The notes under the pieces: model-generated | What the model was told of the DNA's origin: nothing | Databases searched by the model: none | Seen by the model: the letters and a program-made list of their open reading frames with translations, nothing else | Shown here: positions 1-35,908 of the stretch, in pieces | Layout of the letters: each line of letters begins with the position of its first letter | How positions within the stretch are numbered: the first letter of the stretch is position 1 | IMG/VR virus record: IMGVR_UViG_3300031227_000191 | Span: 1-35,908 of that record | Reading direction: 5' to 3' (one strand) | From: a virus | Taxonomy: Duplodnaviria > Caudoviricetes | DNA: 35,908 bases | Position numbers and translations under genes: made by a program

Positions 1-849
1 ATCCCGACAGGCTTCCACTGCTTGCGTCACACTACCAAACGCATAGAAATCAGTATTGCCAGCGACATTAGTTGTTGCATATAATATCTCACCAAAAATC
101 GCCAGTGATCGAACCCATCCAGCCGTGGGAATTTCTGTGGCAAGAGGAGATGATGAAGCTGATGTGGCTGTAGAATATATTGGGCCAGAAGCAGTGCCTC
201 CAGTTTTTTCGACAAGATTTGTAACTCCTTCCTCAAACTGACCCAAGTTTATAGGCTGTGCTGAATTAGTTCCATCTCCAACTCTAATATCAGCACCTGT
301 CCAATTAAGTTGACCAGTATCATTCGTTAACGCCCTACGATCAATATCAGCTTGAAGGGCTGCTTGAGTTACATCAGCTTCAGCCTCTGTGTAAGCATCT
401 ATTAAACGGAATCCATAATTCAATATCTCGTTTTTCATGTTCTCTGATATTCGCGCTCCGGTTAGTGACGGTGACTGTGGGTAGCCGACATGGTTGGTTG
501 ACAACGTGCATATAGCACCGACACCAGCAGCCACACCCAATCTCGACGTGGAGCCTTGGGTATACTCAACATAGACGCTGATGTTTAGACTGCCCTGAGA
601 CACTATGTTTGTTACGCTCCAAGCATCCGTGTCACCCCAAGCATTTTCGGTAAAAATCAAGTCGTTAGTCTTCACGTCCTCACCATCAAATCCGGACGAG
701 CTCCAATCTGTTACCACACCCTCGACTAAATAAGACTGGTAGGCCACTACCTCTGTGCTGTTTGTTATGTCTATTTCAGCTTGGAACAACGGAACCGAGG
801 CAAAACCAGCGGTGACTATTAGAAGATAAACTGACGCAGATTTCCACAT
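1..849 (-). CDS. Putative tail/tail-fibre-like protein with N-terminal signal-peptide-like segment (partial, runs off window start)
   Basis: Not in ORF track (no stop in window). Manual translation from ATG at 849 is open to base 1: MWKSASVYLLIVTAGFASVPLFQAEIDITNSTEVV...; GGGGGA RBS upstream; directly follows the 763-aa fibre gene; Thr/Ser/Gly rich. Confidence 0.75.
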   Translation of the reverse strand, partial: MWKSASVYLLIVTAGFASVPLFQAEIDITNSTEVVAYQSYLVEGVVTDWSSSGFDGEDVKTNDLIFTENAWGDTDAWSVTNIVSQGSLNISVYVEYTQGSTSRLGVAAGVGAICTLSTNHVGYPQSPSLTGARISENMKNEILNYGFRLIDAYTEAEADVTQAALQADIDRRALTNDTGQLNWTGADIRVGDGTNSAQPINLGQFEEGVTNLVEKTGGTASGPIYSTATSASSSPLATEIPTAGWVRSLAIFGEILYATTNVAGNTDFYAFGSVTQAVEACRD

Positions 850-860
850 TCGTATCCCCC

Positions 861-3152
861 TTAAAAGAAACTTAACATAATATGGTTTATGCCGCCAGTC
901 CACAATCCAGACACCTTAACCTGTTCCGGATCCGTTAAATCAAGTCGTGACGGAGCCGTAACTATTTCAGCCCCCGAGTCTTCTCGGTAAACCGTGCACC
1001 CACTAACACCCCACCGGTCGGCAAGACCAGTGTTACCCATATCGTTCGAGCCCAGATTAACTGTTAAAATGCTGCCGCTTGAGCCGTTATACCGAATCCG
1101 GGTTCCCGCCAAAATGGTTCCTGCCGGGATCGTAAATGTTATCGTAGACCCACTCCGGGCCGCGGTTACGTTTGTAGACGAAGCCACAACCAGAATCTCT
1201 TCATCACCCGTAGCAAGAGCAGAATACCGATACAAAGCGGTTCGCGGTCCAAAAGTCACAATAACCTCCCGGTTTGAAACCGTTGCACTGTCATCTGCTC
1301 CAGACTGCCCATATGCATTAGTAACAGAGTCACCAGATGAGTCTGCGTAAATAGCGTAGTCAACCTTCCCGACCGCTCCGTTGGTGTTATACTCCGACTC
1401 CAGCATGTCACCGGCGCCAGCAGCCACGAGACCTAGTTGCCCGGTTTCCGCGTTGGTGTAGGCCAACACATAGCCTTCCGTGCTTCCCATAGGAAGGTAC
1501 ACAGCGCCAAATCGCCCCTCGGGGGCTACAAAAGCTTCTGCGGCATAAGCAGACCCGTTGGTGACCGCCCGCACAAATACGTTGCTCACATTCGCCTTGC
1601 TGCTGCCATCCCCGACTAAAGTCAAAGTCAAGCTCTTATTGGTCGTCAAGGCTACAAAGTAGTTTGAAGACATCCCCAATGTGGCCTGCGATACCGTGGC
1701 CCCGGCGATACTTAACGTCGACGTCCCGTAGCTATTTTCCTTGGAGAAACCCCAGACATAGGTGTGCCCAACAACAACCGCGGTTTCGGCGGTAAAGGCC
1801 ACCGAGGCCACAACACCGGTATACGTTCCCTGTGTCAATCCACTTATATTTGACGAAATAAGTGTGACATCTGCCGCGTAAATAGCATCAAACCGTGAGG
1901 CTTCAGCAGTAAGGTATCCGGCATCAGCGTGGTTCCCCCACAAATATGCAACATACCCTAGCGCCCATTGATTGGTCGGCCACGCTTCTACCGTGGTGAC
2001 ACGGCCACCTACCGCGGTAAGATCAACGTCATTAGAACTAATGGCCGCAAGGTTTATTGCAATATCCACGTCATTTGACCCAATGGCGGCTGTATTGGCA
2101 GCAATATCCACGTCATTCGACCCAATGGCGGCTGTATTGGCCGCAATATCCACATCGTTCGAACCGATGGCGGCAGCGTAGGTAACAACGTTTGTCTCAT
2201 TTGCCCCAACCCGAAGATCAACCGCAGCAATATCTACGTCGTTGGAACCGATGGCAGCAGTGTTGGCTGCGATATCAACATCATTTGATCCGATGGCGGC
2301 AGCGTAGGTAACAACGTTTGTCTCATTTGCCCCAACCCGAAGATCAACCGCAGCAATATCTACGTCGTTGGAACCGATGGCAGCAGTGTTGGCTGCGATA
2401 TCAACGTCATTCGACCCAATGGCGGCTGTATTGGCCGCGATATCAACATCATTCGATCCAATGGCGGCTGTATTGGCCGCAATATCCACATCGTTCGACC
2501 CAATGGCAACAGTGTTGGCCGCAATATCCACATCATTTGACCCAATGGCAACAGTGTTGGCCGCAATATCCACATCATTTGACCCAATGCTCGCCTCAAG
2601 TACATCAAAAAGAGTGTTTGTTGACAACCAACTAGTAAAATACGGGTCAGACTCAACAATGATCCCATCGATACTATATGAGATAGTGACCGGCGTCCAG
2701 GTTGCCGTGTTCGTAATTTCAAATAACGACCATTCTGTAGAAATTTTCCCCTTAGCTAGTGACCTGGTAGGGGACCCGTTTGTAGAAACTAAAAGGAACT
2801 CAGCGTAATATGTTCTGGGCGGAGGTATGTTTGAGACCGCAATAGGGACTGGTGTTGACCAGGACACCGTATTCCAGGTCTTTGAAAATGTACCATTCGC
2901 TACAGTCAAATAGGTGTAACCCCGTTCGGGATATGCCATCCTAAGCCAAATATTAGAACCGCCAGTTACACCCGAAAACGTCACACTTATGTTGCGGTCA
3001 GACCTAGTATCCCAATGCCATTCAAAATCTTGCCACTTGGATTCCCGGCTGCTCGCAGTGTTGGTGAACGTAGCTGTAGACGTGGCGTAATCGAAACCAA
3101 GCACATGAGACGCCAGCATCGCTACCATAAAGAATATGGAGGCTCTGCGCAT
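861..3152 (-). CDS. Tail fibre/adhesin-like protein with 14-aa coiled-coil repeats and signal-peptide-like N-terminus
   Basis: 763 aa ORF downstream of capsid genes; 12 SNDVD-containing repeats (IGSNDVDIAANTAA); AYLWGNHADAGYL motif resembles phage fibre linkers; N-terminus MRRASIFFMVAMLASHVLG. Confidence 0.75.
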   Translation of the reverse strand: MRRASIFFMVAMLASHVLGFDYATSTATFTNTASSRESKWQDFEWHWDTRSDRNISVTFSGVTGGSNIWLRMAYPERGYTYLTVANGTFSKTWNTVSWSTPVPIAVSNIPPPRTYYAEFLLVSTNGSPTRSLAKGKISTEWSLFEITNTATWTPVTISYSIDGIIVESDPYFTSWLSTNTLFDVLEASIGSNDVDIAANTVAIGSNDVDIAANTVAIGSNDVDIAANTAAIGSNDVDIAANTAAIGSNDVDIAANTAAIGSNDVDIAAVDLRVGANETNVVTYAAAIGSNDVDIAANTAAIGSNDVDIAAVDLRVGANETNVVTYAAAIGSNDVDIAANTAAIGSNDVDIAANTAAIGSNDVDIAINLAAISSNDVDLTAVGGRVTTVEAWPTNQWALGYVAYLWGNHADAGYLTAEASRFDAIYAADVTLISSNISGLTQGTYTGVVASVAFTAETAVVVGHTYVWGFSKENSYGTSTLSIAGATVSQATLGMSSNYFVALTTNKSLTLTLVGDGSSKANVSNVFVRAVTNGSAYAAEAFVAPEGRFGAVYLPMGSTEGYVLAYTNAETGQLGLVAAGAGDMLESEYNTNGAVGKVDYAIYADSSGDSVTNAYGQSGADDSATVSNREVIVTFGPRTALYRYSALATGDEEILVVASSTNVTAARSGSTITFTIPAGTILAGTRIRYNGSSGSILTVNLGSNDMGNTGLADRWGVSGCTVYREDSGAEIVTAPSRLDLTDPEQVKVSGLWTGGINHIMLSFF
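2020..2590 (-). repeat. 42-bp coding tandem repeat with a nested 126-bp higher-order duplication
   Basis: Repeated gcaatatc(c/a)ac(a/g)tc(a/g)tt(t/c)ga(c/t)cc(a/g)atggc units; the AVDLRVGANETNVVTYAAA insert occurs twice, 126 bp apart; boundaries approximate. Confidence 0.9.
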
Positions 3153-3153
3153 G

Positions 3154-3540
3154 TTAATCTCCCACGTAGTTTTTCATTATTATAACCGAATTGGTGGCAG
3201 CGTCCATGGTAACCGTTATTATATCACCGCGACTTATTTCGATGACCTCTGGCGCCGAATAGATGTAGTGCTCAAAATCCGCACTGCCCCCGGAACCCAG
3301 CGTAATTGTCACGTTTCCAGCATCAGTAGATTTAACCAGGTAAACCGCCGCCGTATTGGCCACAGTCTCGTGGGTTCCAACAGCAGCTATAATCGTACCA
3401 ATGTAAACCTTATTTTGGACATTAGTCCAAGAATACGAGGTGTTGGTAAATGTTTCTACAACCTGCGGCTCCGTATTATCAAAAGCAAAACTGACTGAGG
3501 CAAACAGTACAAAAGTCAAAGCCAAAACAAAATTTTTCAT
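3154..3540 (-). CDS. Hypothetical late protein with Sec-type signal peptide
   Basis: Likely start at ATG 3540 (MKNFVLALTFVLFASVSFA-FDNTEP) with GAAGG RBS; the longer ORF-track start lies across a hairpin. Confidence 0.75.
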   Translation of the reverse strand: MKNFVLALTFVLFASVSFAFDNTEPQVVETFTNTSYSWTNVQNKVYIGTIIAAVGTHETVANTAAVYLVKSTDAGNVTITLGSGGSADFEHYIYSAPEVIEISRGDIITVTMDAATNSVIIMKNYVGD

Positions 3541-3564
3541 AGGTACCTTCTTCTTGGTTAGTAA

Positions 3565-3600
3565 GTCCCCGGGCTCCCTGTTTCTGGGAGTCCGGGGGAC
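3565..3600 (-). terminator. GC-rich hairpin after capsid/decoration genes (terminator or attenuator)
   Basis: gtccccgggctccc-tgtttct-gggagtccgggggac inverted repeat; U-tract is weak. Confidence 0.55.
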
Positions 3601-3623
3601 ATTACCTTTCATTCTAACTCGTC

Positions 3624-4046
3624 TTAGCCTTCAGCGTCTCCGATATCGGCTATAATTGCCCATGCTCTCACAGTACCGGCCGCCCCAGCATTTCCGCTTA
3701 CGGCAAGATCCATGGTGTCGTCCGCGTCTATGATCACGTTGGCCAACAGATAGCCGCCCTCGTATATGGTGCCGGCAGCCGCGCTCACATCAACCTCAGC
3801 AAGAAACTCGGCTCCAGTGCCAAGTCCTAGTGTTGCGGTGATCGAGTTTGTTGCCGCCGTTACGACCGTCAGCCCAGCAGCAATTATCAGCGTGCTGGTC
3901 TCGAACTCGAATACCTGCACGACATCGTCCGCCTCATCCGTTACACCCCCGAGGGTGACATCAGCCTGGATAAACCCAACTTTGGGCCCAAGCGCCGGGA
4001 ACCCGCCGCGAGTGATCGCGACTGTTGCATCAGTAGTATCAGCCAT
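3624..4046 (-). CDS. Putative capsid decoration/minor structural protein
   Basis: 140 aa, Ala/Gly/Thr/Val rich, immediately after major capsid gene; AAGGA RBS. Confidence 0.6.
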   Translation of the reverse strand: MADTTDATVAITRGGFPALGPKVGFIQADVTLGGVTDEADDVVQVFEFETSTLIIAAGLTVVTAATNSITATLGLGTGAEFLAEVDVSAAAGTIYEGGYLLANVIIDADDTMDLAVSGNAGAAGTVRAWAIIADIGDAEG

Positions 4047-4063
4047 AACCTATTCCTTTCTAT

Positions 4064-4996
4064 TTACGAAACATCTACGGAAGCGTAAAGCACTCCGAGA
4101 GCCTCAGGTTTCACTACCTTGTACCCGAACACCTGGAGACCGCGATGCAACATTCCGAATCCATCCGGATTGTCCTGCACCTTGGAACTCACAAGCTGAG
4201 TAGCAAACGTAGTCGCATCCTTGTGACCAAACAAACAGTACGTCGCGGAATCCGCGGAGTACGTGGCCAGAAGGTTCGAATTGAATATAGTGAACCGGTC
4301 AATGGTACCCAGAACCGAAGTCCTCAGTATCGACTTGGAATCACCCGTCAACGAGCTGTCCTTGAGATCGGACGCCTTAATGAGACCCGCTATCCTCGGG
4401 GGCAGTATCATGTACCTGCCCATATCCGGAACGTTGAGCTCGTCAAGTGCTACGCCGGCGCCGAGAATATAGTCCAAAATATTGGACTTACTCAAGGAAA
4501 CCGGGGTGCCTGTCGTACCCAAAGGAATATTGCCGCTTCGATAGCCAGCGCTATTGCCGATGTTGTACGCACTGGCATCCGAGTAGATATCCTGCAGAAC
4601 AGTCGTATCCACCGTTATGCGCATCTGCTCCGAGCCATCCTTGACCCAGTCGTTGATGTACCCTTTAAGATCGGTTTGAACTTTATCCAGGTCCTCACTC
4701 ACAAACGACCAGTATTTACCCTTGTCGATAAGCAGCGAGACCGCCGTACTTTCCGGCTGATCATTAACCAGGGCCTGACCCTTGCGATAATCCCGGATAG
4801 TCATGTCCGGCGTGGCCCTGATATAGACCGTGTCGCCGTGTTTCTTGATTTCACCTTCGTAATCCGTGTTGGTTATCTGTGTCAACACCGAACTGTCATA
4901 ATACTTGACCAGCATTTTACCAGTATAGAGTACCGGTATATACCGCATCAGGTCGCTTCCAATGTTCCTCGTCCCAGCAGCAATAGGATATGCCAT
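4064..4996 (-). CDS. Major capsid protein (HK97 fold, P22-coat-like family)
   Basis: 310 aa; YIPVLYTGKML...NTDYEGEIKKHGDTVYI and C-terminal RGLQVFGYKVVKPEAL patterns typical of podovirus capsids; position after scaffold. Confidence 0.9.
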   Translation of the reverse strand: MAYPIAAGTRNIGSDLMRYIPVLYTGKMLVKYYDSSVLTQITNTDYEGEIKKHGDTVYIRATPDMTIRDYRKGQALVNDQPESTAVSLLIDKGKYWSFVSEDLDKVQTDLKGYINDWVKDGSEQMRITVDTTVLQDIYSDASAYNIGNSAGYRSGNIPLGTTGTPVSLSKSNILDYILGAGVALDELNVPDMGRYMILPPRIAGLIKASDLKDSSLTGDSKSILRTSVLGTIDRFTIFNSNLLATYSADSATYCLFGHKDATTFATQLVSSKVQDNPDGFGMLHRGLQVFGYKVVKPEALGVLYASVDVS

Positions 4997-5063
4997 GCTG
5001 AACTCCCTTCTTTTATTGTAAGCTTTGAGTGCTGCGGAACAGAACGAAGCAACCTAAAAATTA

Positions 5064-6035
5064 TTAGGAGACTCGACCCTCGACAACAGCGTCATCAATA
5101 GCTCTCTCTATGCGTTCCGCCTCTTTCTCCCTACCCAGGTACTTACCACGGGCAACATCTTTGAAGAACTTCTCCATAGACGCTTGGGAAATCGTAGGCT
5201 TTCCGCGTTCACTTTTACTTCTATCAGGTTCTCCCCGTGCTTTGACCGGTGCGACACCCGACTGGTTTGCATCAATCCCGGCATCCGGGACACTTACTGT
5301 AGGTTTGTACGTCTTATATATCTCCGCCAAACGTCCGACATCTCCAGCCGCAGCGGCAGAACCACCAAGATCTCTGTAAGTTAATCCACTTGCAGGATCC
5401 ACGGTACCCAGGAATCTAAACCATCCCGGATCGTTAGTGTTGGCTATCTTGGCTCCCGGGGCAACTCTATCCACCTTGTCCCACAATGAGTCAGTAGCCT
5501 GGCTCTCTTTCGCGTCTTCAACGAGTTTCAATCTGGCTTCGAGTGCACCATTTGACTTGGCAATAGCCTGTTGAGCCGTTGCAATCGCCGCTTCTGTAAC
5601 ACCCTTGGATACACGGTGTTGCGCGTCCAAGGTGTCCTTCCCAAAGTGCTCGACTTCTTCGGGCTGAATATACCTCAAGTACGCTGGTCTACCGTCATCC
5701 ACCGGCTTCTGAACCGTCAACTGCTCCACTTGGCCGGTCAGCGTCTTAACGGCGCCCTGCAGTGGTATGAGCTGAGAATCAACTCGACCCTGCAAACTGT
5801 TGTTACGATGCCTTTCAAACTCCAACTGGCGTTTAAGGTCCGCCGTTTCACCACTCGTAGAATCCACGTCAGGCTTTACTGCAGGCTTGCCGTCATCCGG
5901 AGGCACGCCAAGAGCCCCAAGGCCATCCACGCCCGGGTTCTCATCTGCCATGCCACCCATTTCCCGCTCAAGTTCTGCTAACAAAGCGTCTCCTTCACCA
6001 ACTTGTTTGTCCACTGCATCAGGTATATCAGCCAT
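5064..6035 (-). CDS. Putative capsid scaffolding protein
   Basis: 323 aa, acidic N-terminus, coiled-coil middle, C-terminal IERAIDDAVVEGRV; immediately upstream of capsid gene; GGAGG RBS. Confidence 0.75.
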   Translation of the reverse strand: MADIPDAVDKQVGEGDALLAELEREMGGMADENPGVDGLGALGVPPDDGKPAVKPDVDSTSGETADLKRQLEFERHRNNSLQGRVDSQLIPLQGAVKTLTGQVEQLTVQKPVDDGRPAYLRYIQPEEVEHFGKDTLDAQHRVSKGVTEAAIATAQQAIAKSNGALEARLKLVEDAKESQATDSLWDKVDRVAPGAKIANTNDPGWFRFLGTVDPASGLTYRDLGGSAAAAGDVGRLAEIYKTYKPTVSVPDAGIDANQSGVAPVKARGEPDRSKSERGKPTISQASMEKFFKDVARGKYLGREKEAERIERAIDDAVVEGRVS

Positions 6036-6157
6036 TTTATCCTCCGTACCCCGCGCTGGATGGCTCCAGAATGCGGCGTCTTACAGAAGGGCCATCGAAT
6101 GGGATCCTTCTGCGTCTATGTCTTATTGTGTCAAGTAACCCGGTTACCCGGACATAA

Positions 6158-6697
6158 TTACTCGACGTATTGAATCCAAACATCAACCACACCATTTGTT
6201 ACCCCGCCGACCGTGGTAACAGTCAACGCCAAGTCCGTAAGATTGGTATCACCAACCACTAACCAGGACGTCGGGTCGCCAAAATCAACCAGCGTAGCAT
6301 TCGTAGCAACCGTACCCAGCCCGGAAGAATCAGCAAGTGCCAAAATATCCGCTGCGCCATTAACACCAAAAGATACGGTACCGGTCGTAGACGAGGCCGT
6401 ACTAAACTTAAACGCAGCGTTCTGTAATATTGCGCCATACGGAAGCGTTACTCCCATAGACTCTGCCGACAAATCAGACGCAGCTGTAAAGTCATAGTGA
6501 CCCTTGGCAACTCGCATCAAACCGGTACCTGTATCGTCCAGGTTATCGTCGTCAAGCCGGTTTATCTCAGCTGCGGTCGGAGTGATCTGGGTTCCGTTTA
6601 CACGCCATACGGTCAGATTTACATCCTCCCGCGGAGCCGCATAAAGCGACGTGACCATCAAGGCCGCAACTATAATTCCTATACACAATTTCTTCAT
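6158..6697 (-). CDS. Hypothetical head-region protein with Sec-type signal peptide
   Basis: MKKLCIGIIVAALMVTSLYA-APRE N-terminus; ITPTAAEINRLD and GLMRVAKGHYDF segments resemble phage structural proteins. Confidence 0.75.
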   Translation of the reverse strand: MKKLCIGIIVAALMVTSLYAAPREDVNLTVWRVNGTQITPTAAEINRLDDDNLDDTGTGLMRVAKGHYDFTAASDLSAESMGVTLPYGAILQNAAFKFSTASSTTGTVSFGVNGAADILALADSSGLGTVATNATLVDFGDPTSWLVVGDTNLTDLALTVTTVGGVTNGVVDVWIQYVE

Positions 6698-6715
6698 TCA
6701 ACTATCTCCCTGTAG

Positions 6716-6937
6716 TTATTGCTCACGTTTAGGGTTGCCGTCTAAAGCTTCAAGAACATCTTCAAGCTCCATACAACCACCCTGATTTCTATACACCGGA
6801 GCACCGTCGAGCAGATACTTCCTCTGGTTCTCTAATAGACTAACCGAAAACCACTCCCGAATGCAAGCAAAAAGTTTCGGTCTGGTAATTTTTATTTCTT
6901 CCAACGCATCAATAAGGTCCTCAGATACCCGAATCAT
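6716..6937 (-). CDS. Small hypothetical protein downstream of portal
   Basis: 73 aa ORF overlapping portal stop; YRNQG motif reminiscent of small proteins that follow podovirus portals. Confidence 0.65.
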   Translation of the reverse strand: MIRVSEDLIDALEEIKITRPKLFACIREWFSVSLLENQRKYLLDGAPVYRNQGGCMELEDVLEALDGNPKREQ

Positions 6938-9194
6938 TCTCTACTCCATTCCCGCCAATAATAGTGTCCATGGTCTGTGCTTCCAGCATTCCGGCCTTCG
7001 CTCCGGTTTCAATGCCCTTCTGTGAAGCGAGCATGCCTTTGATCTTCAACTCCTCGCGCTTCAGCTGCATCTCACCCTCAGTCTTGGCCGCACTGATCTG
7101 GACCTTGGCATCCTCGCGCTGGTCACCCCGTTGCTGGGATTGAACGTCAGCCTGTTGCACTTGCTGTTCCATCTGCATCTGCATCTGAGCCTGTCGCTGT
7201 TGAGCCTGCTGAGACTCGCGCTCTTCCCGCTGACGTTCCTCAATGACTTCGTCACTCGGAATAATAGTGCTGCCGGAAATTTCCAGGGTCTTAACTATTT
7301 CGCGGTGTAAAGCAGCCCGGCCAGTGAGCCCTAAGATTTGTGAGTCAACAGGGTTCGCGGTATCCCTGAGGTAACTCAAACGTCGCTCAGCAACCTGTTC
7401 CTTGGCCATCAGAGCCACGACTCCTGTGCTGACGATGTTGACATCACCGACGATTGACATGTCGTTTTTCTTGCTGAAGTTCCAGTCAATCACACGGTCG
7501 ATCATGGGCTTGAATACCTTGCGGTCGATTGTAAGCACAACCTTTTTGATCCCCTTGGTGGCATTCGACATCAGCATAGACAGTCCACCAAATGTCCGTC
7601 CGGCACCAGCAACCTTCTCGTTGCCATACGTGTAAGCCGGTATTCCGGATATGTCATCCGCCGACTTGGTGAAGTAGCCCAAGACCTCCAGAAGCTCCCG
7701 CGCAATACTGCGAGGTTGTAGGAAGTCAAGCGGCGGCGCCGTAGAGGTTTGCTTATTTGTAAACTGCCAGACCTTGAACGGATAAATAGAAGTGACCCTC
7801 TCACCTTGAGCAAGCCGGCCGACATCAGAGAATATGGCTTGCGGTCCAGAGGCAATAGCCAGATTATTAACCAAAGCGCGCGCCGTAGCGTTGGCGGTGT
7901 CCTGGACGTCCTTCAAAACTTCAGGCAGCCCCTTGTACCAGAACGACCCTGAGATATGGCCAAAGCCGGCTTTGCTATAAGGCTTCCGGCCCAACAGGTC
8001 GGGTTCGTACCCTTTGTAAATTATCTGGTCTCCAACCAAAAGCACAACCACCTGAAACTGTGACAGCGGGTCTACTTCCTTCTTGGTCAAACCGTAGGTC
8101 ATGCACTGAGAGCCACTCATGCTGAGATGCGCTTCGTACCCCTCGACAGTAGACTTGTGAATTAAATTTGTGTTAGCGGTGTTATCATCCTCGTCGCCGG
8201 TGTCCCGTAAGTCTTCGAGTTCCTGATCCAAGTTCGTAGACAGCAACGTCGGCACCGAACCAAAGTTTATGAGCACCGAGTCAATCGCAGTGCTATCGTA
8301 GCCTTTGAAACCTTTCATCTTCTGCAGGTCGGCTTTGAAAAATTTGACCCGTTCAATGAAGTCTCCCTCGAAGTCTACAGTGGCGGGGTCGGGATACGCA
8401 TTGAACGGGTCTACTCGTTCAAAGATAGGCTGGACTTCTTTTTGCAGCTTTAAGTCGGGTACCCCGGTGGTGGGGTCAATGTCCCACCGCTTCCTGGTTA
8501 GGGTTTGCAGAACCGGACCCTTCAGGATTCCAGCTTTCATGGAAACCAGGTCGGAAACAAAGTCTTCGAAGATCTCCCACAGGTGGCCTTCAAGGAACTG
8601 GTCATTGACCCGCTCCTCCAGGTTGCTTGCTTTTTCAATCGCTATCTGCCTAATTCGTTGGTCGGCCGCAGTCCGCATCTCCTTCTGGATGCTCGCAATC
8701 TCGTCTGGCTTGAGCTCAACGCCCTCTTGCTGGGCTTGAGCCAGCCTACGCTGTGCGATGTCTTGTACCCCCATCATGGCTTGCTGTACGTCATACATCG
8801 ACACCGATGGCTCTGGAGTAGGCCTTAGGCCCCAGGGTTTGTCCTCTTCATTGCTAAAGATTTCCAGCAACCAGGCTACCGCGGCACGGTGCTTGAGTTC
8901 GGTGACTCCAATAAAAACTTCACTACCGCCAACGGAACCTTGGATGGCGTCCAACTTCGCTTGGGAGTATTCAGAATTGATTCGCCGCAAGTTGTCCAGC
9001 ATTTGGTCTTCGACACCAGACTCTCGACGGTTACGCTCAAACTCGGAGAACTTGTCCTTGACGTAAGCCGCCAGGGACATGTCTTCGATCTCAACCACAG
9101 CATCTTTTTGAACCGCCGCCTTGCGGGCTTCGTACAATCGTTCTGATGTAGCCTCCGCGGACTGGATGCCGGCAAAGTCAAACCTAGTTCCCAT
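6921..9194 (-). CDS. Portal protein
   Basis: About 757 aa from probable ATG 9194 (GAGGGG RBS); ERVDPFNAYPDP, NATARALVNNLAIASGP, GAGRTFGGLSMLM, Gln-rich C-terminal coiled coil; lies between terminase and scaffold. Confidence 0.88.
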   Translation of the reverse strand: MGTRFDFAGIQSAEATSERLYEARKAAVQKDAVVEIEDMSLAAYVKDKFSEFERNRRESGVEDQMLDNLRRINSEYSQAKLDAIQGSVGGSEVFIGVTELKHRAAVAWLLEIFSNEEDKPWGLRPTPEPSVSMYDVQQAMMGVQDIAQRRLAQAQQEGVELKPDEIASIQKEMRTAADQRIRQIAIEKASNLEERVNDQFLEGHLWEIFEDFVSDLVSMKAGILKGPVLQTLTRKRWDIDPTTGVPDLKLQKEVQPIFERVDPFNAYPDPATVDFEGDFIERVKFFKADLQKMKGFKGYDSTAIDSVLINFGSVPTLLSTNLDQELEDLRDTGDEDDNTANTNLIHKSTVEGYEAHLSMSGSQCMTYGLTKKEVDPLSQFQVVVLLVGDQIIYKGYEPDLLGRKPYSKAGFGHISGSFWYKGLPEVLKDVQDTANATARALVNNLAIASGPQAIFSDVGRLAQGERVTSIYPFKVWQFTNKQTSTAPPLDFLQPRSIARELLEVLGYFTKSADDISGIPAYTYGNEKVAGAGRTFGGLSMLMSNATKGIKKVVLTIDRKVFKPMIDRVIDWNFSKKNDMSIVGDVNIVSTGVVALMAKEQVAERRLSYLRDTANPVDSQILGLTGRAALHREIVKTLEISGSTIIPSDEVIEERQREERESQQAQQRQAQMQMQMEQQVQQADVQSQQRGDQREDAKVQISAAKTEGEMQLKREELKIKGMLASQKGIETGAKAGMLEAQTMDTIIGGNGVENDSGI

Positions 9195-9302: not shown

Positions 9303-10856
9303 TTAAGTCCAACCAGAGGCGCTTAGTTTGTCAACAGGAAGTATGGGCTGATCCATGCCAAATATGTCAGCCCCGGTGTCCGAGTCGCCGGTTATTGAGG
9401 CGGTACGGGCCAGGAGACAGAGGTACTGCAAGGCGTCGTGAGGATGTGACCATTCATTTTTCTCCGGGCTGGCCTGGAACCGGTCAGAGCTTCCCGTCTT
9501 AATCTTTGCATACTGATACTTCCCCTGGAAGCCCTTGCGCAGCATGTCGGATTTATTGTCCAACTCAAAACCGGCAGCACCATCCACCATCCGGGTCAAG
9601 AAATAAACAACCGCCTCCCGGCGTGCTATGAAGCTGTTTGTCGGCGCCGGGTCGGTCGGAATGCCCTCGGCATGCAGGATTTGCATGCAAGTCACTTCGT
9701 CAGTCTGCGACCTGGCGGTACCCGCGGGGTCACCGCAGCTAAGCAGCCGCATCCCAGCATAACTATTCAACAACAGCGGCCTGACTACCTCCCGAATGAA
9801 CCTGGTGATGCCCATGTCCTCGCTGCAGCGCTCGTCAAGTATCCTAAGCTTGCCTTGCGGCGTTAGTTGGCCAAAGATACAGGCCGGAGTCAAACCAAAA
9901 TCCCAGCCTAAGAGCAGCGGGAGCCCTCGATACGGTGCCAATGGGGCTCCAGTGCAGTGCAAAGAGTCCGTATATTCCGGGTAAACCGGTCTCCCGGTCA
10001 TTAAAGTCCCATATTCGCCGGCAACGAAGACCTTAACCCAGGCATCCAGCTTACCGGGGATCATTCGTTCCCAATACTCAAACTCCTCGTCATAAAATCT
10101 AACGTAATCGGCAGCCGGATACCTGGGATCCTGGCCGCGATTAGGCTTGTAGACTATCTTTGTGGCCGAGATTCCGAGTTTCTTCTCGACATCGTCACAC
10201 TTGACGACCGTAGGGATCATCGCCGGCGGGTACCGAAAGAACTCAAAGCCTTCTGGCCTCTCAATTTCAGCTAATCTGTAGTACCAATGGTCGTCTGACG
10301 GAGGGTTGGTATCCATAATGATGCCCTTCCACAGCGAGCCACCCCACAATTTGCCGGGGAACCTAAGTCTCGTGGTGGAAATGTCAAAAATTGACTTGCG
10401 GATCTCCGACACCTCGTTCAAAAAGATCCCGGTCAGTTCCAAAGATTTCATCTTATGGACGTCATCATCCCGATCGAGAGCTAAAAACAAGATTTCAAGC
10501 TCTACCTTGGTGCCATCCTGAAGCTTAATATTAAGTCTCCCGGTGATCGGAGGGGACCTGGAGATAGGGCACAAGGCTTCCGGGACCCATTCCTGCCAGG
10601 TTTTCATGGTTGTGCTGATAAGTTCGGAGTATGTGTTCCGAACAAAGGCCCAGCGCGACCGGCGGACCCCGTTGAAAATGCGCTGTTCGCAGGCCCTACT
10701 CAAGACTTCCATGCAACAAGTGACCGTCTTACCGGTGCCAACCGGACCCATTATACCGCGGTAGGTCGCCGAGCTGGCATGGAATTGTTTTGCCACAAAG
10801 GCTGGGTCATAGTCAGGAAATTTAATCTCATGTAGAGCCTGCGATAACTGCGCCAT
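9303..10856 (-). CDS. terL: Terminase large subunit
   Basis: Walker A GPVGTGKT, Walker B IFLNE, coupling motif DTNP, RNase H-like nuclease LGWDFGLTP...GDPAG...HPHDALQY. Confidence 0.95.
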   Translation of the reverse strand: MAQLSQALHEIKFPDYDPAFVAKQFHASSATYRGIMGPVGTGKTVTCCMEVLSRACEQRIFNGVRRSRWAFVRNTYSELISTTMKTWQEWVPEALCPISRSPPITGRLNIKLQDGTKVELEILFLALDRDDDVHKMKSLELTGIFLNEVSEIRKSIFDISTTRLRFPGKLWGGSLWKGIIMDTNPPSDDHWYYRLAEIERPEGFEFFRYPPAMIPTVVKCDDVEKKLGISATKIVYKPNRGQDPRYPAADYVRFYDEEFEYWERMIPGKLDAWVKVFVAGEYGTLMTGRPVYPEYTDSLHCTGAPLAPYRGLPLLLGWDFGLTPACIFGQLTPQGKLRILDERCSEDMGITRFIREVVRPLLLNSYAGMRLLSCGDPAGTARSQTDEVTCMQILHAEGIPTDPAPTNSFIARREAVVYFLTRMVDGAAGFELDNKSDMLRKGFQGKYQYAKIKTGSSDRFQASPEKNEWSHPHDALQYLCLLARTASITGDSDTGADIFGMDQPILPVDKLSASGWT

Positions 10857-13680: not shown

Positions 13681-14196
13681 ATGAAAATCACGATTGAAAT
13701 AATGGGGGGCAAGAACATAGAGGGCAAAGCTTCCTGCTTCGCTGAGTTTGTTCAAAGACATAAATTTGAACTATCGAACGCAAATCTAAAACACACTGAC
13801 TTGTCCGGTGCTAAACTGACCTACGCGAATCTGAGGCACGCTGACCTGTCAGGCGCTGACCTGAGAGACGCGGATCTGTTAAACGCAGATCTGTCAAGTA
13901 CCAAACTGAAAGGCACTAATCTGGCAGGCGCCGACCTGTCAGACGCTAACATGAAACACGCCGACCTAAGAGGCGCAGATCTCGACTATGCATCAATGTT
14001 CACACTAAAGTGCGAGTCATTCGGCGCAACGCTGGACAAACGGCAAATGGCCCAACAGGCCTATCACTTTTGCCGTCACAAATGTGACGACCCAGAAGTC
14101 AGGGCAGCTCAAGAAGCCCTGATACCATTAGCGAATCAATTCCATCACGTAGATAAGTGCGGCAAAGTAACAACACACCCAGTCACCACAGCCTAA
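13681..14196 (+). CDS. Pentapeptide repeat protein (paralogue 1)
   Basis: A(D/N)LxxA(D/N)Lxx repeats; AGGAG RBS. Confidence 0.92.
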   Translation: MKITIEIMGGKNIEGKASCFAEFVQRHKFELSNANLKHTDLSGAKLTYANLRHADLSGADLRDADLLNADLSSTKLKGTNLAGADLSDANMKHADLRGADLDYASMFTLKCESFGATLDKRQMAQQAYHFCRHKCDDPEVRAAQEALIPLANQFHHVDKCGKVTTHPVTTA

Positions 14197-15806: not shown

Positions 15807-17006
15807 ATGTACAAAATAAAATTAAAAGATATGAAAGTCCCAGCCTACATTTGGACTGAAGACGGAGCCATGGAGGCTGGAACTCTTAGACAGATACAAA
15901 ACCTAAGCATGCTGCGGTCAGCCTTCCACCACATAGTTCTTTGTCCAGATGGACACCAAGGCTACGGGATGCCCATTGGTGGTGTCCTAGCCACAAAGGG
16001 GACAATCATACCTAATGCAGTCGGAGTAGACATTGGCTGCGGCATGTGCGCAGTCAAAACGTCACTCACTGACATCTCCCGATCTGACCTGGAATCAATT
16101 AAAGCTAAAATCAGACTCAAAGTGCCGGTTGGATTCCACCACCACGAGCTGAGAACAATGTGGTCAGGATTCAAATTGGCCCCAACGAGCAGTCCGATAG
16201 TTCAACAAGAACTACAGGCCTCTCATTACCAGCTGGGAACCCTGGGTGGCGGAAACCACTTCATGGAGATCCAGCAAGACCAGGCAGACGGCCGTATTTG
16301 GCTGATGCTGCACTCCGGGTCTCGTAATTTTGGCTTGAAAATAGCCAAATACTACAACACCATCGCAAAAAAAGCCTGTGATATGTGGGACTCAGACATA
16401 CCAAACACAGACCTAGCCTTTCTCCCACTCGATTCTGAAGAAGGTATTGAGTACATAAATGCGATGGAATATGCATTGAAATTTGCTAAGGAATCAAGGA
16501 GACGGATGATGTTTAGTATGATAAACACTTTGAAGTGGTACTATCATGTTGAGCACAAGATTAAAGATCTGGTTGAGTGCGACACAATAATCGACGTCCA
16601 TCACAATTACGCCCGAATGGAAAATCATTTTGGACACAACGTGATGGTACACCGAAAGGGAGCCATATCAGCGCGTAAAGGCGAAACAGGCATCATACCA
16701 GGATCCCAGGGAACACTGTCGTACATCGTCGAGGGACTTGGCAACCCGGACTCTTTCATGTCCTGTAGCCATGGCGCCGGCAGACGGATGAGCAGAACCC
16801 AAGCACGAAAAGAGTTGGACTTCGTCGCCGAAGTAGCTAAACTCGAGGAGACTGGTACTGCCCACTGCCTTAAACACCCAAAGCAGCTCGACGAAGCACC
16901 GGGAGCTTACAAGGACATCGAAGATGTCATGGCAAACCAGAGTGACCTTGTCAAAATAGTAGCAGCCTTGAAACCACTGGCCACGATAAAAAGTGGACCT
17001 GAATAG
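15807..17006 (+). CDS. rtcB: RtcB-family RNA ligase
   Basis: PDGHQGYGMPIGGV, VGVDIGCGM, LGTLGGGNHFME, HSGSR, HHNY, HRKGA, SCSHGAGR, LDEAPGAYKDI motifs. Confidence 0.97.
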   Translation: MYKIKLKDMKVPAYIWTEDGAMEAGTLRQIQNLSMLRSAFHHIVLCPDGHQGYGMPIGGVLATKGTIIPNAVGVDIGCGMCAVKTSLTDISRSDLESIKAKIRLKVPVGFHHHELRTMWSGFKLAPTSSPIVQQELQASHYQLGTLGGGNHFMEIQQDQADGRIWLMLHSGSRNFGLKIAKYYNTIAKKACDMWDSDIPNTDLAFLPLDSEEGIEYINAMEYALKFAKESRRRMMFSMINTLKWYYHVEHKIKDLVECDTIIDVHHNYARMENHFGHNVMVHRKGAISARKGETGIIPGSQGTLSYIVEGLGNPDSFMSCSHGAGRRMSRTQARKELDFVAEVAKLEETGTAHCLKHPKQLDEAPGAYKDIEDVMANQSDLVKIVAALKPLATIKSGPE

Positions 17007-35060: not shown

Positions 35061-35908
35061 ATGACAATCTTCACCTTCTTACTATTATGCCTGGCTGGCC
35101 AGCAACAAGCATTCGGAGTCCCCATGTTACTGGTTGGGGGCTCAGCGCTGGTGTGGAACCTACGTCGAGTGAACCTGCGTAGCTTTCAGACCTGGTGCTG
35201 GGTCATCTTCTTAACTATCGTAACTGTGCAGACCTTACGAATCTGTGCTGACGCTTCGATACTAGAGTTTGCCCCGCCACTAGTATTCTCGGTATCACGG
35301 CCACACTCAGTCATGGTACTGGGTGGCTGGGCTATCGTTGCCGCCCTGTGCCTTGGTGACCCGGTGACCCGGAACCAGGCGCTGTGGTGGGCTGGTGTCG
35401 TAGCGATCCTCGGGATAGCGCAGTTCCACACTGGAGCCTCGGGGTTCTACTGGGCTATCCCCTTCAAGACCAGGTTCTTTTCTGTGTTCAGCTACATCAA
35501 TAATTCTGGGTCGTTCTTTATACTGGCATCTGGGCTCGCTATGACATACAAACTAAGAGGGATCCCGCTCGTCATGCTCTTCTATTACTGTGCCTATCTG
35601 ACACAGTGTAGGTTTGCCTTGGCTGTCATTCCCATTTTGCCACTCTATGCCCTGCTGACGCGTCGCTGGAAGCGGTGGGGGCTACTAGGTATCGCGATTG
35701 CAGGGTTCGTGGCGCTGGCGTTGAAGCTGGACTACCTGCTGTCGTGCGGGAGATGGCAGGAGTATGAGGCTTTTTACCATTTCTTCCCACACTTCCCTTG
35801 GTTTGGGGCCGGTCCGTGGGGGTACCACTGGTTTGCCAACACATATGGACCTGAGTGGTTGCGCGCTTTATTTGTACGTAACCCTAACTGCCACAACAGT
35901 TACCTCAT
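35061..35908 (+). CDS. O-antigen ligase / O-oligosaccharyltransferase-like (Wzy_C) polytopic membrane protein (partial, runs off window end)
   Basis: Not in ORF track. Manual translation open to the end: many TM segments, FSVFSYINNSG, LTQCRFA, GRWQEY, PWFGAGPWGY, NCHNSYL, matching the F.Y.N / T.SR / P.FG.G.G / HN.YL motifs; AAAGGA RBS. Confidence 0.8.
   Translation, partial: MTIFTFLLLCLAGQQQAFGVPMLLVGGSALVWNLRRVNLRSFQTWCWVIFLTIVTVQTLRICADASILEFAPPLVFSVSRPHSVMVLGGWAIVAALCLGDPVTRNQALWWAGVVAILGIAQFHTGASGFYWAIPFKTRFFSVFSYINNSGSFFILASGLAMTYKLRGIPLVMLFYYCAYLTQCRFALAVIPILPLYALLTRRWKRWGLLGIAIAGFVALALKLDYLLSCGRWQEYEAFYHFFPHFPWFGAGPWGYHWFANTYGPEWLRALFVRNPNCHNSYL

Follow-up and report, generated by a model that had tools for sequence, protein, structure and literature searches.

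Why would a short-tailed phage place Sec-type signal peptides on proteins of its late operon, when tailed phages are held to assemble wholly in the cytoplasm? This question is raised by a stretch of viral DNA of 35,908 nucleotides (IMG/VR record IMGVR_UViG_3300031227_000191, positions 1 to 35,908; hereafter the window), a 35.9-kb piece of a podophage and the only contig of its genome, G000. In minus-strand order, the left arm of the window reads terminase small and large subunits, portal, a 73-amino acid (aa) gene, gene A, scaffold, capsid, a 140-aa gene, and genes B, C, and D, the last of them cut by the contig end. An original prediction held that A, B, C, and D begin with Sec-type signal peptides and that the capsid, scaffold, portal, and 140-aa decoration protein do not; it proposed that fibres and decorations of this phage may be exported and added late to particles or, alternatively, displayed on the surface of the infected cell. 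Our analysis bears out the leaders. The products of the four genes are predicted to sit on the outside of the virion, A as a cement-type spike in trimeric form, C as a BppU-docked fibre, and B and D as two companions of unassigned type.

The coordinates of the four open reading frames (ORFs) proved right. On the minus strand, protein A (179 aa, 6158–6697), protein B (128 aa, small and β-rich, 3154–3540), protein C (763 aa, 861–3152), and protein D (at least 283 aa, cut by the contig end, 1–849) each open with a basic n-region, an uncharged hydrophobic core, and small residues at −3 and −1, and a purine-rich Shine–Dalgarno-like site precedes each ATG. The predicted cuts fall after residue 20 in A, 19 in B, 19 in C, and 17 in D, giving leaders at 6638–6697, 3484–3540, 3096–3152, and 799–849, respectively. 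Leaders were called by our own n/h/c rule (basic n-region, hydrophobic h-region, small −3/−1 residues), not by a trained predictor. This rule flagged none of the portal, scaffold, capsid, 140-aa, and terminase proteins of the window and none of its 31 early plus-strand genes. Likewise, it flagged no core-protein sequence of the fetched loci (0/414 in total), including, among distinct proteins, 0/94 portals, 0/92 scaffolds, 0/139 capsids, 0/34 terminases, and 0/55 adaptor-type proteins. A leader is present in all 16 family-C sequences and in all five other family-B matches, and the signal segments of families B and C and of D's homologue are conserved in kind, not in letters. As judged from sequence, the four leaders are real, beyond chance, and the proteins bearing them are very probably exported and cleaved.

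For B, a longer ORF from ATG 3612 also exists. In metagenome run X2, a 1-base insertion behind 3597 shifts this upstream extension, while the changes within B's leader in runs X1 and X2 keep its basic and hydrophobic character, and ATG 3540 is therefore the likely start. The leaders might also be unused for export, with the virion form made from an internal start or left uncleaved in the cytoplasm. A and C do carry internal Met codons in the leader; however, the 13 family-C leaders displayed align at the cut with no Met conserved near it, the leaders vary in letters while keeping their n/h/c properties and register, and the Thr-Asn excess described below tracks the leader rather than the fold. 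We regard this explanation as highly improbable.

Protein A shows most clearly what the leader is attached to. Its mature N-terminus is a conserved anchor peptide common to proteins with otherwise variable bodies, followed by a short stalk and the head. In 16 leader-bearing family-A members, the anchor motif begins within one residue of the predicted cut, a partly circular result in that nine of the 16 were search seeds. Among leaderless members, none of which was a seed, the motif directly follows Met or Met-Ala/Ser in five of seven. Since leaderless homologues start at the register of the cut, the leader of A is a clean prefix. A search of 1.84 billion representatives with family A gave 20 matches, and of 15 read, ten carry a leader and five do not; both sets include homologues of the C-terminal head. 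A word-index homologue search with A found only a near-copy, and cultured phages gave no match to a leaderless member of family A.

The model of A (predicted local distance difference test, pLDDT, 67) matches the Pam1 cement protein 7eel_H with a Z-score of 11.4 and a root-mean-square deviation (r.m.s.d.) of 2.6 over 111 aligned residues, and the GP4 and KHP40 cements with Z-scores of 9.7 and 9.2. Three copies of mature A gave a trimer score of 0.91, with the best control at 0.00; 20 of 30 solved pairs pass the mark, as does 1 of 23 single chains. The runs agree in at least 80% of contacts, with pLDDT of at least 77, and show an intertwined N-terminal stalk. Thus, for A, the one protein modelled in this way, the prediction is a homotrimeric spike whose head is a jelly roll of the cement type. 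The slot directly after the capsid gene is occupied not by A but by its paralogue, the leaderless 140-aa capsid cement (3624–4046, minus strand), whose family profile matches the Pam1 cement (expectation value, E, 2e-8) and A's head family (profile probability 92.9%). The cements of cyanophage Pam1 (7EEL), Ralstonia phage GP4 (8H89), Helicobacter phages KHP30/KHP40 (7DN2, 7DOU), and Bordetella phage BPP-1 (3J4U) share their fold with A's head and their sequence profile with the 140-aa family. Unlike these jelly-roll cements, which we take to be cytoplasmic, A combines a leader with an anchor peptide and a stalk, and its gene sits between those for portal and scaffold in a genome that also encodes a normal leaderless cement; A is taken to be a spike-like derivative.

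Protein C is comprised of the leader, a BppU-like domain, a stalk of 14-residue repeats, a β-rich body, and a C-terminal domain weakly like the cement family (match E 0.001). The BppU-like domain lies at the mature N-terminus (approximate limits 2718–3095, minus strand) and is followed by 42-bp (14-aa) tandem repeats (2022–2589, minus strand), a likely fibre stalk. The domain matches 4v96 with a Z-score of 8.7 and an r.m.s.d. of 3.1 over 121 residues, and 3uh8 with a Z-score of 8.2. Specifically, six solved chains reach a Z-score of at least 8, all of them phage baseplate or neck parts, whereas unrelated chains stay at or below 6, and viral structure models are likewise BppU-like for this domain. 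The predicted fold is thus that of the BppU N-terminal domains of TP901-1 ORF48 (4V96/3UH8), 80alpha (6V8I), and the Sf14 neck (9C39). Unlike those parts, the domain of C follows a cleavable leader, belongs to a podophage, and has no match to BppU_N at the sequence level. C is predicted from these models to be a BppU-docked fibre. For B, an Atlas search gave no fold match of at least 0.9, only leads below. The leader of D is the weakest of the four: the rule placed the cut at residue 24, and the single homologue (P0141, 829 aa, 59%, with a different leader) supports 17, since the similarity begins there. D has one segment in common with a 1397-aa family-C fibre, and no viral locus was found for it. 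Neither PHROG nor Pfam scans placed A to D in a credible family, and sub-cut-off PapC_N and pertactin matches were disregarded. At window positions 177–413, runs X2 to X4 carry a variant of D in which 235 bases are replaced by 310 others, a variable stalk segment.

The trait is concentrated in one group of phages. Capsid searches, with capsid fragments below 240 aa dropped, gave 95 clusters at 90% identity, and in a quick capsid tree the window falls in a clade of 50 rows (Shimodaira–Hasegawa-like approximate likelihood ratio test, SH-aLRT, 97). Excluding 27 rows in which less than 1.3 kb follows the capsid, one or more leader genes are present at 30 of 35 loci in this podophage clade versus 4 of 33 outside, and two or more at 25 of 35 versus 1 of 33. 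By these gene counts, the leader trait marks a podophage clade. In the complete genome of a relative, G001, leaders occur on 8 of 28 late-arm genes of at least 90 aa, namely the A-slot gene and seven genes between the adaptors and the nozzle, including those of a tail-collar protein (PF07484, E 1e-11) and a LamG protein. The portal, capsid, cement, adaptors, nozzle, and long internal proteins of G001 are leaderless. Close relatives differ, with leaderless modules in L012 and L133 and leader-bearing ones in L138 and L019. These modules occupy the same slot, so that a swap is seen among close phages (L012:7167–7433 and L133:3946–4209 versus L138:2436–2774 and L019:11953–12252), possibly reflecting host switches.

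To explain why such proteins would be exported, several reasons were considered. Disulphide folding was rejected, as cysteines are scarce: mature A, B, C, and D contain 0, 0, 1, and 2 (D being partial), and 58 of 92 clade proteins have none or one. The PglB/AglB-type sequon N-x-S/T was also rejected (392 versus 376 expected, 1.04-fold), as was D-S/T-[AILVMT], which we take to be the Bacteroidota O-glycosylation motif (121 versus 142 expected). The dipeptide Thr-Asn, by comparison with expectation, occurs 618 times versus 237 (2.6-fold) in 92 mature proteins, with 84 of the 92 above expectation, and is the most enriched dipeptide (z 25, the next being 6). With repeats masked, the excess is 2.2-fold over 46 dereplicated families versus 0.92-fold over 100 outgroup families; the four proteins of the window contain 27 versus 9.9 expected, and family A shows 2.43-fold with a leader and 0.87-fold without. 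Since Thr-Asn is confined to exported proteins, is order-specific (Asn-Thr 0.89-fold), and avoids a following proline (0.34-fold), it looks like a modification site.

The host side was approached through prophages. Relatives of the capsid were detected in 7 of 401 genomes of Verrucomicrobiota, in 8 of 401 in the class of genome G322, and in 1 of 351 of Planctomycetota. The Planctomycetota case, a 48-kb contig that agrees gene for gene with the corresponding stretch of G001, is probably a phage that was binned with the genome. In the Kiritimatiellia-like genome G322, the prophage G322:C12 is integrated next to host genes, among them an HtpG with Kiritimatiellales as its best named relatives (85%). 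This prophage carries leaders on its portal–scaffold gene, its fibres, and its post-capsid cement (L217:12878–13351, minus strand; cement homologue, E 3e-18). Other prophages of the class, in G442, G142, and G334, are leaderless in the stretch read, and a family-C profile matched none of 301 genomes of the class in a search made without a positive control. Thr-Asn counts were taken in sampled 20-kb stretches of host genomes, with exported and cytoplasmic proteins split by a crude rule. Exported versus cytoplasmic values are 1.64-fold versus 0.89-fold in G322, 2.49-fold versus 1.03-fold in six genomes of its order, 2.12-fold versus 1.08-fold in four other genomes of the class, and 0.82-fold versus 1.37-fold in nine Planctomycetota; two hosts with leaderless prophages show no excess (0.65-fold and 0.83-fold). 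The capsid of G322 being distant from that of the window (E 1.8e-35), the host is an inferred one, and it is quite probably a member of the Kiritimatiellia.

Together, the Thr-Asn signature suggests this host and a periplasmic modification, possibly glycosylation. That the host glycosylates Thr-Asn, and that this explains the export, is a serious possibility, just short of probable. Export and late attachment might also be real while Thr-Asn is a folding or turn preference of the exported β-proteins of this lineage, export instead separating sticky, receptor-binding parts from assembling heads. Thr-Asn also sits at a conserved loop of leaderless cements, and the value of N-x-S/T and the failure to identify a transferase fit that explanation; however, the excess extends across 46 unrelated families, does not appear in leaderless outgroup proteins rich in T/S/N (0.93-fold), and is specific to order, to the residue that follows, and, in the host, to compartment. 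We hold this folding explanation possible and give it lesser weight. STT3 was found above the cut-off in 9 of 101 genomes of the class, a patchy distribution in incomplete genomes; the match in G322 is a 464-aa protein in which the WWD motif was not seen. A PglB-like oligosaccharyltransferase with a WWD motif is encoded in another genome of the class (G005, L285:1342–3525). In the window, a membrane protein with O-antigen-ligase features (35061–35906, plus strand, cut by the contig end; Atlas 0.97, Wzy_C clusters, no Pfam hit) was considered as a phage transferase, and this link was dropped when none of four related virus records matched.

These results are consistent with a model in which, on late transcription, core parts would be made in the cytoplasm, while leader-bearing parts would pass through Sec and be cut by signal peptidase. 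The exported parts would then fold and oligomerise as soluble periplasmic proteins, as predicted for A, and may be glycosylated there at Thr-Asn. When the inner membrane fails at lysis and the outer membrane still confines the contents, the anchor peptide or the BppU domain would attach the parts to particles. Late addition of exported fibres and decorations, as originally proposed, gains partial support from the cement fold and predicted trimer of A, the BppU-like fold of C, the register of the leaderless homologues, and the leader-bearing cement of G322; no fold is assigned to B or D. The leader-bearing proteins are probably present on the virion, and the full course of export, cleavage, periplasmic maturation, and attachment at lysis is moderately probable. 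The widest statement, namely that tailed phages of Kiritimatiellia assemble in two compartments, with spikes, fibres, and sometimes cement passing through Sec, a periplasmic host system decorating Thr-Asn, and the particle being coated with these host-glycosylated parts at lysis, is put forward tentatively.

Several observations weigh against this model. It does not solve the problem that parts and particles would be diluted at lysis. The trimer pass of A may come from its likeness to solved cements; the BppU call for C was made on fold alone, a profile comparison with stand-alone BppU-like proteins gave 3% probability, and no leaderless family-C member was found. Five of the 35 clade loci show no leader gene, and no clade member was found as a prophage with host genes at its flanks. 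Regarding the signature, Thr-Asn is also raised in the leaderless late proteins of the window (8 versus 3.6) and in the leaderless cement family (24 versus 13), only 29 of 58 host exported proteins lie above expectation, the small exported sets of G584, G199, and G005 show no excess, and the 'cytoplasmic' sets of G559 and G005 show one. In addition, no modifying enzyme or transferase was found in the genomes examined. Finally, G001 retains a leaderless fibre-like pair of 120 aa and 283 aa after the nozzle, so the exported set may be accessory.

This leaderless module could serve adsorption if the exported proteins stay with the cell as ex-virion parts, acting as decoys in the periplasm or after secretion, as blockers of receptors, or as adhesins on the surface of infected cells or lysogens. 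It keeps the surface-display alternative of the original prediction alive, and a role at the cell would also suit the temperate lifestyle of the related phages and a Thr-Asn signature that matches the host's own exported proteins. That alternative is weakened by the mature chains, which lack what a membrane-anchored surface protein would have: a membrane helix occurs in none of the 72 complete mature leader-bearing proteins and a possible lipobox in 2 of 94. Moreover, the mature N-terminus retains the docking elements (anchor peptide and BppU fold), the genes are part of the late operon, and the post-capsid cement of G322 is itself leader-bearing. Retention by the cell is therefore unlikely. 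Finished particles might instead meet the parts in the periplasm before lysis, for example if they cross the inner membrane of a Planctomycetes–Verrucomicrobia–Chlamydiae (PVC)-type host or bud through it. PVC bacteria have large periplasms, and such a course would remove the dilution problem; however, no envelope or particle-export machinery was recognised, G001 having small role-unassigned genes after its fibres, and we know of no precedent for tailed phages crossing or budding into the periplasm before lysis. We consider it very unlikely.

Attachment of exported parts at lysis has partial parallels in known systems. The filamentous coat proteins pIII and pVIII of Ff phages are made with Sec-type leaders, and are in this respect virion parts like the proteins of the window. 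Unlike them, Ff coats stay membrane-anchored and assemble during extrusion, whereas the mature proteins here lack a membrane helix and go with a capsid of the tailed-phage type. The P22 tailspike, T4 Soc and Hoc, and lambda gpD add spontaneously to finished particles, which makes late attachment feasible for the window's proteins; unlike the latter, they are leaderless and are made and attached in the cytoplasm. The virion of mycobacteriophage Che8 is reported to be glycosylated, its major capsid protein being modified by phage-encoded glycosyltransferases (PMC11256854, citing Freeman 2023). Che8 would share with our phage an outer sugar on a tailed phage, if the Thr-Asn reading holds, and would differ in that accessory parts here would go to a periplasmic host system. 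In the literature searched, with subscription papers and supplements lying outside it, we found no report of Sec-exported virion parts of tailed phages or of a Thr-Asn sequon; the folds are known, and the export route is absent from the literature reached. A lineage that exports cement and fibres would add an assembly step outside the cytoplasm, and the locus offers a reason for export other than disulphide folding, in a signature common with host exported proteins. If the two-compartment reading is true, Thr-Asn would be a new bacterial protein-modification sequon. The signature is testable in host proteins, apart from the phage, and is a sequence-only handle for host assignment of uncultured phages of this kind.

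Other left-arm genes, all on the minus strand and leaderless, are the terminase large subunit (9303–10856; phrog_2, E 1.5e-18), the portal (6921–9194; SU10_portal above the cut-off, start codon uncertain), the probable scaffold (5064–6035; phrog_13678, of unknown function, sitting between portal and capsid), and the major capsid protein (4064–4996; phrog_267, E 1.6e-48). A promoter and terminator scan of the DNA gave chance level only. Salt-lake metagenome runs contain the words of the window, seven of them at least half, and no RNA dataset was among the listed datasets containing such words; over bases 1–7000, four runs each cover 28–30 of 30 bins, with no single contig spanning the stretch. 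In relatives, insertions lie inside or adjoining capsid or terminase genes (L015:5320–6201, L184:9199–9939, and L123:772–3213) and are possible introns, homing endonucleases, or inteins.

Elsewhere in the window, on the plus strand, a cluster at 18852–24136 contains a ThiF/E1-like gene (20706–21395; PF00899, E 4.5e-10), together with genes that we labelled by eye and presume to be E2-like (18852–19604) and, with its HxH motif, JAB-like (22982–24136); the cluster is possibly a phage ubiquitin-like module. An RtcB RNA ligase is encoded at 15807–17006 (plus strand; PF01139, E 4e-109), and two pentapeptide-repeat paralogues at 13681–14196 and 21408–22238 (plus strand) have near-identical N- and C-terminal caps.

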